Assembly (NCBI GenBank): GCA_003694975.1
Contig: RFJH01000308.1
Location: forward strand, 1-30,647
Source of the DNA: Anaerolineae bacterium
Lineage (GTDB): Bacteria; Chloroflexota; Anaerolineae; Anaerolineales; Villigracilaceae
DNA: 30,647 bases
Direction: 5' to 3'
Under the pieces are notes generated by a model that did no database searches, had not been told where the DNA came from, and worked only from the letters and a program-made list of their open reading frames with translations. Positions within the stretch are counted from its first letter, which is position 1. Each line of letters opens with the position of its first letter. This document shows positions 22,812 through 24,550 of the stretch, in pieces. A program made the position numbers and the translations under genes.

Positions 22812-24546
22812 GCCAGGACAATCGCTCTTCCTTTGATGTCTTTGAGCACGGTTTTCTCGATCCCGAAGCACCCTTGATCCGGATTGGAGAAGGGGAGTTG
22901 GGCGGAAAAGCACATGGCCTGGTACACATCCGTGAGGTGCTGAACACCGATCTGAATATGGAGCAATTCCCCGGCATCACACTGGATATCCCGCCCCTGG
23001 CCGTCATTGGCACCGGCGTGTTCGACGCCTTCATAAAAGAGAACAACCTGCATGAAGTGGTCTACCGTGACCACATCTCCGATGAAGACCTGACGCGTGC
23101 TTTTCTGGAATCCCCTCTGCCCGCAGAAGTACTCACCGACCTGCGCGCTCTGGTGGAGCAGGTGCATACGCCGCTGGCCGTCCGCTCATCCAGCCTGTTG
23201 GAGGACGCCCGCTATGAACCCTTCGCGGGCGTTTACGCCACCAAGATGATCCCCAATAAAGGAAAGGACACCAACCTGCGACTTCGCCAATTGGTCGAAG
23301 CGATTAAATTCGTCTACGCCTCCACATTCTTCCGGCACGCCCGGAACTACCGCCGCGCCACCGGTCACACGGAGGAAGAGGAAAGCATGGCCGTCGTCAT
23401 CCAGAAACTGGTCGGCAAGCACCATGGGGAACGCTTTTACCCCGAAATCTCCGGCGTGGCGCGCTCCTATAACTACTATCCGGTGGGACGCGCGAAGCCG
23501 GAGGAAGGCGTGGTCTACCTGGCGCTCGGCCTGGGAAAGACCATCGTGGATGGCGAACCGTGCTGGATGTACTCCCCCGCGCATCCAAAGGTGGAGCCTC
23601 CTTTCGGCTCGGTGGAGAAACTGCTCAAAGAGACGCAGACGGATTTCTGGGTGCTGAACATGGGCGAGCCGCTGCAACGCGCCCCCACCAGCGAGACCGA
23701 GTACCTCCTCCGTGAGAACCTGACCGTGGCCGAGCAGGACGGTGTTTTGCGCTACCTGGCCTCCACTTACAGCCCCCTTTCAGGTCGTCTCTCCATCGGC
23801 ACCGGATTCCCCGGTCCGCGCGCGCTGACCTTCGCCCCCATCCTCGTGCTGGAGGAGATCCCCCTCAACCGCCTTCTGGTCGAATTACTGGAGATTTGCC
23901 AGCACGCCCTGGGCGCACCGGTGGAAATCGAATTCGCCATGACGCTCAACCCTCACCGCTTCGCGCTCCTCCAGGTGCGTTCCATGCTCGCCCCAACCGG
24001 CGAAACGCGCCTGGAAGTCGAAGACCTGCGCGGCGAGCACGTCCTGGTCGCCACCGAGAACGCCATGGGGAACGGCACGCTGGAGACGATTCGGGATGTC
24101 GTTTACGTCAGACCGGAGAACTTCGAGTTGCGGTACAGCGCACGCATCGCGCCGGAACTGGAGCGCATCAACGAACGCCTGGTCGCCGAGGGACGCCCCT
24201 ACCTGCTCATCGTGCTGGGAAGGCTGGGGACGAGCGACCCCTGGCTGGGCATCCCTGTCCGCTGGGCACAAATCAGCGGCGCCTGTGCGGTGGTGGAAGC
24301 CACGGGATCAAACGTGCGCGTGGAACTCAGCCGCGGCTCGCACTTCTTTCACAACATTGTCAGTTTGGGGGTGAAATACCTCATGCTCTCCTCCTCAAGT
24401 CGCTACACTGTGGATTGGGAGTGGTTGGATCGGCAGGAGGGCGAGGAAGAGACGGAATTTGTCCGCCACGTGCGCCTTCCGAACCCACTGCAAATTCGAG
24501 TGGACGGCTATAGTGGACGGGGTGTGATCTACAAGCCCGCCGACCT

Positions 24547-24550
<4 letters not shown>
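22808..24550 (+). CDS. PEP-synthase/PPDK-like ATP-grasp protein (paralog A), no pyruvate-binding barrel
   Basis: LGGKAHGL, AVRSSSLLED, FAGVYAT, MAVVIQ, SGVARS, VEIEFA, LLQVR of PPDK_N; ~180-aa C-terminal domain with GSHFF; ATGA overlap with the regulator stop. Confidence 0.88.

Follow-up and report, generated by a model that had tools for sequence, protein, structure and literature searches.

The window examined here, a stretch of 30,647 nucleotides covering positions 1 to 30,647 (forward strand) of contig RFJH01000308.1 from an Anaerolineae bacterium (Villigracilaceae; assembly GCA_003694975.1), carries two paralogous genes, A and B, whose products combine an ATP-grasp domain of the PPDK_N type with an unassigned C-terminal tail. 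Our results suggest that this tail in paralog A (residues ~410-578) is probably a highly divergent phospho-histidine swivel domain of the kind present in phosphoenolpyruvate (PEP) synthase (PPS), PPDK, Enzyme I and rifampin phosphotransferase (RPH). The genes concerned, all on the forward strand, are arranged in the order histidine kinase, response regulator, A, glutamate dehydrogenase (GDH), B. Specifically, Pfam identifies a GAF-HisKA-HATPase histidine kinase (20681..22009) and an OmpR-type response regulator (22080..22811) upstream of A and in the same orientation, as well as a GDH gene (24614..26041) between A and B. Paralog A (22808..24550, as given by the open reading frame list and its translation) encodes 580 amino acids, and its ATG overlaps the TGA stop of the response regulator gene (ATGA). 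Paralog B (26195..28747) encodes 850 amino acids.

PPDK_N (PF01326) is the sole Pfam match in either protein, at residues 30-392 of A (22895..23983; E=7e-41) and residues 267-654 of B (E 1e-49). For A, this assignment is further supported by VIA-align (Z 24.8 to RPH with AMPPNP) and by the conservation of the nucleotide-site motifs G-G-K34, V-R126-S-S, E373-I-E375-F and Q389-V-R391, in which K34, R126, E373, E375, Q389 and R391 are each retained in 32-36 of 36 sequences. These motifs correspond to G-G-K, R-S, D/E-x-E and Q-x-R of PPDK, an equivalence established by eye because the MAFFT alignment of the N-terminal region with PPDKs misaligned two of them; the PDB holds entries for the PPDK mutants K22A, R337A and T453A. 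In A, the grasp is followed by an interdomain linker of ~17 residues (~393-409; 23984..24034; pLDDT of 75 in block 391-400), which in the model is likely a hinge, and then by the tail (24035..24541), whose delineation as a swivelling beta/beta/alpha domain rests on AlphaFold2 (AF2), VIA-align and Foldseek. Paralog B has an N-terminal extension of ~260 amino acids ahead of its PPDK_N domain and ends in a C-terminal domain of the A type. The two paralogs are 29% identical over their entire common length, tail included.

An earlier note, made from the sequence alone, had proposed that the tail of A conceals a phospho-histidine domain with His512 as the phosphocarrier. The strings it had picked out, NAMGNG (418-423), IRDVVYV, YLLI, DPW (477-479), ISGACAVVE, SRGSHFFHNIVSLGVKY (508-524) and IRVDGYSGRGVI (563-574), all occur in the translation of 22808-24547 (forward strand), and residue 512 is indeed a His, encoded by CAC at 24341..24343. 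This residue, which we consider probably to be the phosphoryl carrier, lies in the signature S508-R-G510-S-H512-F-F-H515-N516 (24329..24355), which spans a loop and the start of helix 511-520. Ahead of it, the S-D-P-W that follows core strand 3 (24233..24244) is a counterpart, recognised by eye and without statistical support, of the canonical T-[DNT]-P-x-W turn. Behind it, V-D-G (24500..24508) belongs to a terminal hairpin; no other segment is paired with canonical PEP-utilizers domains by profile-profile comparison. The S-R-G-S-H-F-F-H-N of A aligns with S-I-G-T-H-F-F-Q-D of B, in which His762 (CAC, 28478..28480, within G-T-H-F-F-Q-D) is the counterpart of His512.

The fold of the tail is the first line of evidence for this assignment. 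AF2 modelled residues 395-580 from an alignment of 66 sequences with high confidence (pLDDT 93.7, pTM 0.91), and full-length A with a pLDDT of 88 and a pTM of 0.87. In full-length numbering, the predicted tail comprises a strand at 412-416, a strand at 423-434, a long helix at 441-460, a strand at 465-470, a short helix at 486-489 and a strand at 492-498, followed by a loop, helix 511-520, a strand at 523-527, an inserted helix and strand at 537-548, and the hairpin 552-566 / 571-575 that bears V-D-G. Helix 511-520 begins with Ser511-His512 and comes after the fourth core strand (492-498). The elements succeed one another as in PEP-utilizers domains, which run from a G-x-x-G hairpin through a helix, an I-L-V strand, a T-x-P-x-W turn, a G-i-v-T strand, the His loop, the His helix and an I-P-x-V strand to the V-D-G hairpin. 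Relative to canonical domains, the first helix is longer, the loop before the His is extended by ~7 residues, and more residues separate the His from the Asp of V-D-G (54 in A, against 44 in PPDK and 32 in RPH-like tails).

Structural searches with the predicted tail returned a coherent set of relatives. VIA-align, an exhaustive comparison against 48,161 PDB chains that is independent of Foldseek, matched it best to RPH (5hv1, residues 756-867; Z 7.2), the C-terminal domain of Bacillus stearothermophilus pyruvate kinase (475-583; Z 7.0), the PPDK phosphoryl-carrier domain 2fm4 (Z 6.7), maize PPDK (377-511; Z 6.5), a DRTGG domain (Z 6.3), the N-terminal domains of Enzyme I (Z 5.7-6.1) and Aconitase X (Z 5.6). 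Because the swivel domain of RPH is defined as residues 767-865, with catalytic His825 (PMC4844700), the first of these matches covers it completely. In a second VIA-align run, the top 18 of 18 entries were RPH, PPDK, Enzyme I or pyruvate kinase C-terminal domains, each covered in full (RPH Z up to 7.3). The lower VIA-align matches belong mostly to what we take to be SCOP c.8 (aconitase/LeuD, the apical domains of GroEL and the transferrin receptor, LD-carboxypeptidase, putative cyclases and RraA). Foldseek searches of the PDB with the tail alone placed PPDK, pyruvate kinase and RPH first, and among the Swiss-Prot AlphaFold models the best match was Aquifex PEP synthase (361-476; E 2e-3, probability 1.00), followed by further central domains of PPS and PPDK and by tails of pyruvate kinases. 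Look-alikes in the ESM Atlas are members of the A/B family only. A match to the longin domain of VAMP7 from a profile search of PDB sequences with the tail alignment (E 0.01 over 60 residues, around the string S-H-G-N-Y-L-F-H) was judged spurious, as no longin fold occurs among the top 50 structural matches. The fold argument is carried by the coherence of the match lists and the full coverage of the target domains rather than by Z alone, and on these predicted structures the tail is very probably a swivel-type domain. The nearest solved relatives are phospho-histidine carrier domains, in agreement with the swivelling beta/beta/alpha fold that the earlier note had expected.

The second line of evidence comes from superposing the whole protein. 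The full A model aligns with PEP synthase 2ols as one rigid body over 361 residues (model 11-578, chain 4-467; Z 24.6), and with the Clostridium symbiosum PPDK structures 1dik, 2dik, 1kbl, 1ggo and 1jde over 340-348 residues, reaching chain position ~505-510 (Z 16-18). By contrast, the alignments with PPDK in the other swivel state (2r82, titled "second conformational state", 5jvn, 1vbh and 5jvj) comprise only ~225 grasp residues and end near chain position ~340 (Z 11-12), and the isolated ATP-grasp 5hv6 aligns over 276 residues. The rigid-body alignments thus gain ~85-120 residues exactly where the His domain of the target sits on the grasp domain; in the 1dik group, the His domain presumably lies beside the nucleotide-binding domain. 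This pattern indicates that AF2 places the tail of A on its grasp domain as in PPS and the 1dik-group PPDKs. A chance resemblance between proteins of a widespread alpha/beta architecture, or an error of modelling that hides an unrelated new fold, could be invoked on the grounds that Z stays below 8, that the Foldseek E is ~0.015 and that no sequence link is significant. Such an explanation would have to accommodate a list whose best 18 entries form one superfamily with every member fully covered, a gain in whole-protein alignment that appears only when the His domain is on the grasp, and high model confidence from 66 aligned sequences; we regard it as the least credible of the alternatives, with hardly any weight.

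The third line of evidence is the conservation of the His. Position 512 is a His in 272 of the 274 retrieved domain instances that cover this column, among them paralog B (His762) and another copy elsewhere in the genome, so the conservation on which the earlier note had staked its proposal is borne out. Among the full-length homologues (n=36), His512 is retained in 34, Gly510 in 36 and Ser508 in 35, within the family consensus S-x-G-[ST]-H-[FY]-F-[HQ]-N. The two departures, P0150 and P0202, have R and Y in place of His512 and have lost H515 and N516 as well; judged by these substitutions, they may be degenerate, catalytically dead copies. The Thr that lies two residues before the His in canonical dikinases, and that is the regulatory target there, is replaced by the invariant Gly510, and a scan of the genome containing the window, whose assembly is 88.6% complete, yielded no match to PF03618 (PDRP, DUF299); the absence of this control, as suggested earlier, is thus corroborated.

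The helix bearing His512 also invites a different chemistry, in which H512-x-x-H515 and Glu497 would form a metal or small-ligand site, as in the putative-cyclase/kynurenine formamidase branch, and the tail would be hydrolase-like or a sensor. An H-x-x-H on one helix and an invariant Glu497 fit such a site, as do VIA-align matches to metal-dependent hydrolases, isatin hydrolase and kynurenine formamidase among them (8f9x, 4j0n, 4co9, 2b0a and 8hmo; Z 4.7-5.3). These cyclase-type matches, however, rank below all phospho-histidine domains, and the constant fusion to PPDK_N would be left unexplained. Because H515 is often a Gln (in ~20% of domains, paralog B among them), we rank a metal site low and consider it very unlikely.

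Sequence comparison did not recover the relationship, and several observations weigh against a phospho-histidine assignment. No Pfam model matches the tails of A or B, PF00391 included, even at E<=10 (hmmscan of whole A and of residues 400-580); for A, B and their isolated tails, NCBIfam gave no more than partial matches, N-terminal in position, to models of PEP synthase, RPH and PigC, and a profile search of PDB sequences with the tail alignment yielded nothing relevant. Comparison by hhalign with 19 PEP-utilizers domains cut from the genomes of relatives, under default, global and relaxed-gap settings, reached at most 7% probability and was non-significant at every setting. The default setting aligned nothing but the terminal V-D-G-x-x-G strand (7% probability); relaxing the gap costs gave a non-significant co-linear path in which the canonical His falls two residues off His512. 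The canonical loop T/S-x-x-G-G-x-x-x-H (PMC12167813) is absent from the A tail; in its place, E497 is followed by 10 residues and then S508-R-G510-S-H512, a loop ~7 residues longer than the canonical one that ends in S-x-G-[ST]-H. The S-H-x7-L-G-V spacing cited in the earlier note is present as described, and taken by itself is statistically non-significant as evidence. The equivalence of His512 with His455 and His825 was drawn from the succession of secondary-structure elements rather than from coordinates. The Foldseek match to the PDB is weak (E 0.015), and Z ~7 can, by the calibration of VIA-align itself, be reached by unrelated folds. The pyruvate kinase C-terminal domain is swivel-type and has no known phosphocarrier role, and A has no third, acceptor domain, PPDK_N being its sole Pfam match and the chain ending at residue 580.

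What does survive at the sequence level is the terminal hairpin h-V-D-G-x-x-G-x-h, present in A as I-R-V-D566-G-Y-S-G-R-G-V, with D566 and G567 each retained in 33 of 36 sequences; the earlier identification of this strand holds, and hhalign pairs it, if with the low probability given above. The link between the tail and PEP-utilizers domains is below detection by sequence methods, and sequence alone is insufficient to make the case. It rises above chance because of the predicted structure, the conservation of the His and the domain context. The proposal of a cryptic phospho-histidine domain therefore stands on its fold and its His, and not on sequence statistics. Because the fold, the position of the His, the terminal hairpin and the partner domain are those of the dikinases, and the PF00391 profile and the loop motif are not, A is best described as dikinase-like but divergent.

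Several of these points would also fit a tail that descends from, or looks like, swivel domains but no longer carries phosphate and acts as a regulatory or docking module, with its His needed to bind a ligand or to maintain the structure. In that case, the ATP-grasp would either act on a substrate directly or depend on a carrier in trans. In favour of this reading, the C-terminal domains of pyruvate kinases reach the scores of true carriers (Z 7.0), neither the canonical G-G loop nor the PF00391 signature has been preserved, Ser508 and Gly510 are conserved at least as well as His512, and R or Y replaces the His in two homologues. On the other side, the His is nearly invariant across the A, B and receiver-fused types, and the predicted docking reproduces the two-domain arrangement of PPS and PPDK. 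Furthermore, PF00391 was found nowhere in the 88.6%-complete genome, be it in A, B or the remaining genes, and is present in 19 of the 20 other genomes of the same family or order that were searched. It follows that no recognisable PPDK, PPS or Enzyme I, and no alternative carrier, was found there. The characterised PPDK_N enzymes all use a swivel His, none working without phospho-histidine (PMC4844700, PMC12167813). Taken together, these considerations leave a tail devoid of carrier function as an unlikely explanation, if the most serious of those set out so far.

Under the favoured phospho-histidine assignment, A would operate in steps. ATP would be bound by the PPDK_N ATP-grasp, onto which the C-terminal domain would dock as in the model; His512, at the N-terminus of helix 511-520, would attack the beta-phosphate, the gamma-phosphate being lost, His~P remaining on the domain and AMP being released; and the domain would then swing on its ~17-residue linker and hand the phosphate to an acceptor outside the A polypeptide. 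The nucleotide-site motifs of the grasp are intact in A, and its conserved His is at the topologically correct helix start; the tethered swivel-fold domain is predicted to be docked as in PPS and PPDK. Phosphorylation of His512 and dikinase chemistry are proposed by analogy with the biochemistry of RPH, PPDK, HpeHI and VadK (PMC4844700, PMC12167813, PMC13400623). Paralog B, GDH and a receiver domain are candidate acceptors, as is a small molecule that an insertion in the grasp would bind. This conserved, beta-rich insertion of ~60-90 residues relative to PPDK (residues ~250-345; window 23555-23842), in which P257, P260, Q277, F280, S319, T320 and G336 are nearly invariant, is a candidate acceptor-binding site.

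The family to which A and B belong is large. Whole-protein searches retrieved at least 8000 clusters at 90% identity, whose named members are "PEP/pyruvate-binding domain-containing protein" from Anaerolineales, and a tail-only search retrieved 1480 clusters at 50% identity, spread over Chloroflexota, Bacteroidota, Ignavibacteriota and Spirochaetota. Architectures range from proteins of ~580 amino acids (A type), through proteins of 770-1000 amino acids (B type, or with an N-terminal receiver and DUF5752), to proteins of 1500-1650 amino acids with two tails. The last of these (P0123, P0124 and P0128) are natural A-B fusions; in P0123, residues 27-588 align with an A-type sequence and the stretch 894-1509 shares 39% identity with B. 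The C-terminal end of P0128 is an NTP_transf_2/Pol-beta nucleotidyltransferase domain. In P0155, P0160 and P0176, together with Atlas clusters (~700-1000 amino acids, mostly Bacteroidota), a receiver and/or DUF5752 stands ahead of the grasp-plus-tail unit. Literature on DUF5752, and on PPDK_N with response regulators, contained nothing that we could find on the A/B family, and DUF5752 itself came up in no paper.

Within the genome of the window, the tail domain occurs in three copies: A, B and a B-like gene elsewhere (L029:857-2938, reverse strand, contig C82), which is cut by the contig end and carries S-F-G-T-H-F-F-Q-D. Across the phylum, 8 of 121 sampled genomes carry the domain. An A-type-level match (E 4e-73) is restricted among these 121 to the genome of the window, the other carriers scoring E 1e-26 to 1e-35, and most relatives of the same order have only a copy that scores at the level of the B-like third copy (E 1e-26 to 1e-34).

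The genomic neighbourhood is conserved well beyond this contig. Three unrelated contigs, metagenomic or genomic (L021, L022 and L023), have the genes in the order histidine kinase (GAF-HisKA-HATPase), OmpR regulator, GDH, A, B, and a GDH gene also precedes the A-B fusion P0123 (L026:1304-5875). In L022 and L023, a second GDH is present, followed by a third PPDK_N protein, and the paralog B homologue of L023 shows weak NTP_transf_2/Polbeta matches. This conserved GDH synteny, the A-B fusions and the precedent of VadK, a mycobacterial dikinase relative described below, suggest by analogy a regulatory dikinase, for which action on the adjacent GDH, or a relay involving B, would be plausible. A small-molecule acceptor at the grasp insertion would be equally plausible. 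The more specific proposal, that A and B (with their fusions) constitute a dikinase-type phospho-histidine relay regulating GDH or nitrogen status, in which His512~P would hand its phosphate to a protein (B, GDH or a receiver) and not to a small molecule, we advance tentatively, as possible and on balance doubtful.

Judged from the models, a large uncharacterised, GDH-linked protein family thus probably works through phospho-histidine. The only annotation of thousands of bacterial proteins is "PEP/pyruvate-binding domain-containing", and all carry the unassigned tail. If the tail is a cryptic phospho-histidine carrier, these apparently incomplete ATP-grasp proteins become complete two-step phosphotransferases with His512 as the key residue, and a swivel domain can, on the favoured reading, lose the textbook G-G-x-T-S-H loop. 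The linkage to GDH and to a two-component system raises the question of whether a dikinase controls GDH or nitrogen metabolism, as VadK does the methylcitrate cycle. Were the relay to prove true, it would represent a widespread class of signalling or regulatory kinases built on an ATP-grasp instead of the Bergerat-fold histidine kinase.

Comparison with known systems places A among enzymes that share its parts in different combinations. The pyruvate kinases of Bacillus and Staphylococcus (2e28, 3t05) have, like A, a C-terminal swivel-type domain of comparable score (Z 7.0), attached in their case to pyruvate kinase and in A to an ATP-grasp; we know of no phosphocarrier role established for it. 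PEP synthase and PPDK (2ols, 1dik) resemble A in that the grasp is directly followed by the His domain, the two superposing as one body over 340-361 residues, and in the common V-D-G-x-x-G strand. A differs from them in being without the PEP/pyruvate TIM barrel, in having Gly for the regulatory Thr at His-2, and in its longer helix 1, its insert of ~7 residues before the His and its family-specific grasp insertion; from the His to V-D-G, it has ~10 residues more than PPDK and ~22 more than RPH-like tails. The rifampin phosphotransferase RPH-Lm (5hv1/5fbs; PMC4844700), which provides the best domain match (Z 7.2-7.3), likewise has an N-terminal PPDK_N grasp and a swivel His domain at the end of the chain. 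Unlike A, it holds a rifampin-binding domain of ~430 amino acids between the two, and its His loop is the canonical G-G-x-x-S-H recognised by PF00391, whereas the loop of A is not. No second substrate-binding domain (TIM barrel, rifampin-binding or equivalent) was found in A by Pfam or by structural matches, the latter covering grasp and swivel only. In the two-component small-molecule dikinases HpeHI/CreHI/PpsAB (9goj; PMC12167813), a PPDK_N grasp (Z 17.4 to HpeI) works with a swivel His as proposed for A, and these systems illustrate that the parts can be split and recombined: in them, one protein combines swivel and substrate-binding domain and another provides the grasp, whereas A unites grasp and swivel and has no substrate domain. 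VadK (Rv1127c) of Mycobacterium tuberculosis is a truncated PPDK relative of two domains that autophosphorylates on His422 with Mg-ATP and binds enzymes of the methylcitrate cycle, its catalytic His having been placed by overlay on solved PPDK structures (PMC13400623). Because of this autophosphorylation and binding, VadK is a precedent for a regulatory dikinase beside a metabolic enzyme. Like A, and as likened by architecture and description only, it consists of an ATP-grasp and a phospho-histidine domain, the latter predicted in A, with no third domain; unlike VadK, the A family is separate, widespread and old, has a distinct motif, and would have as its partner, if any, GDH rather than the methylcitrate enzymes.

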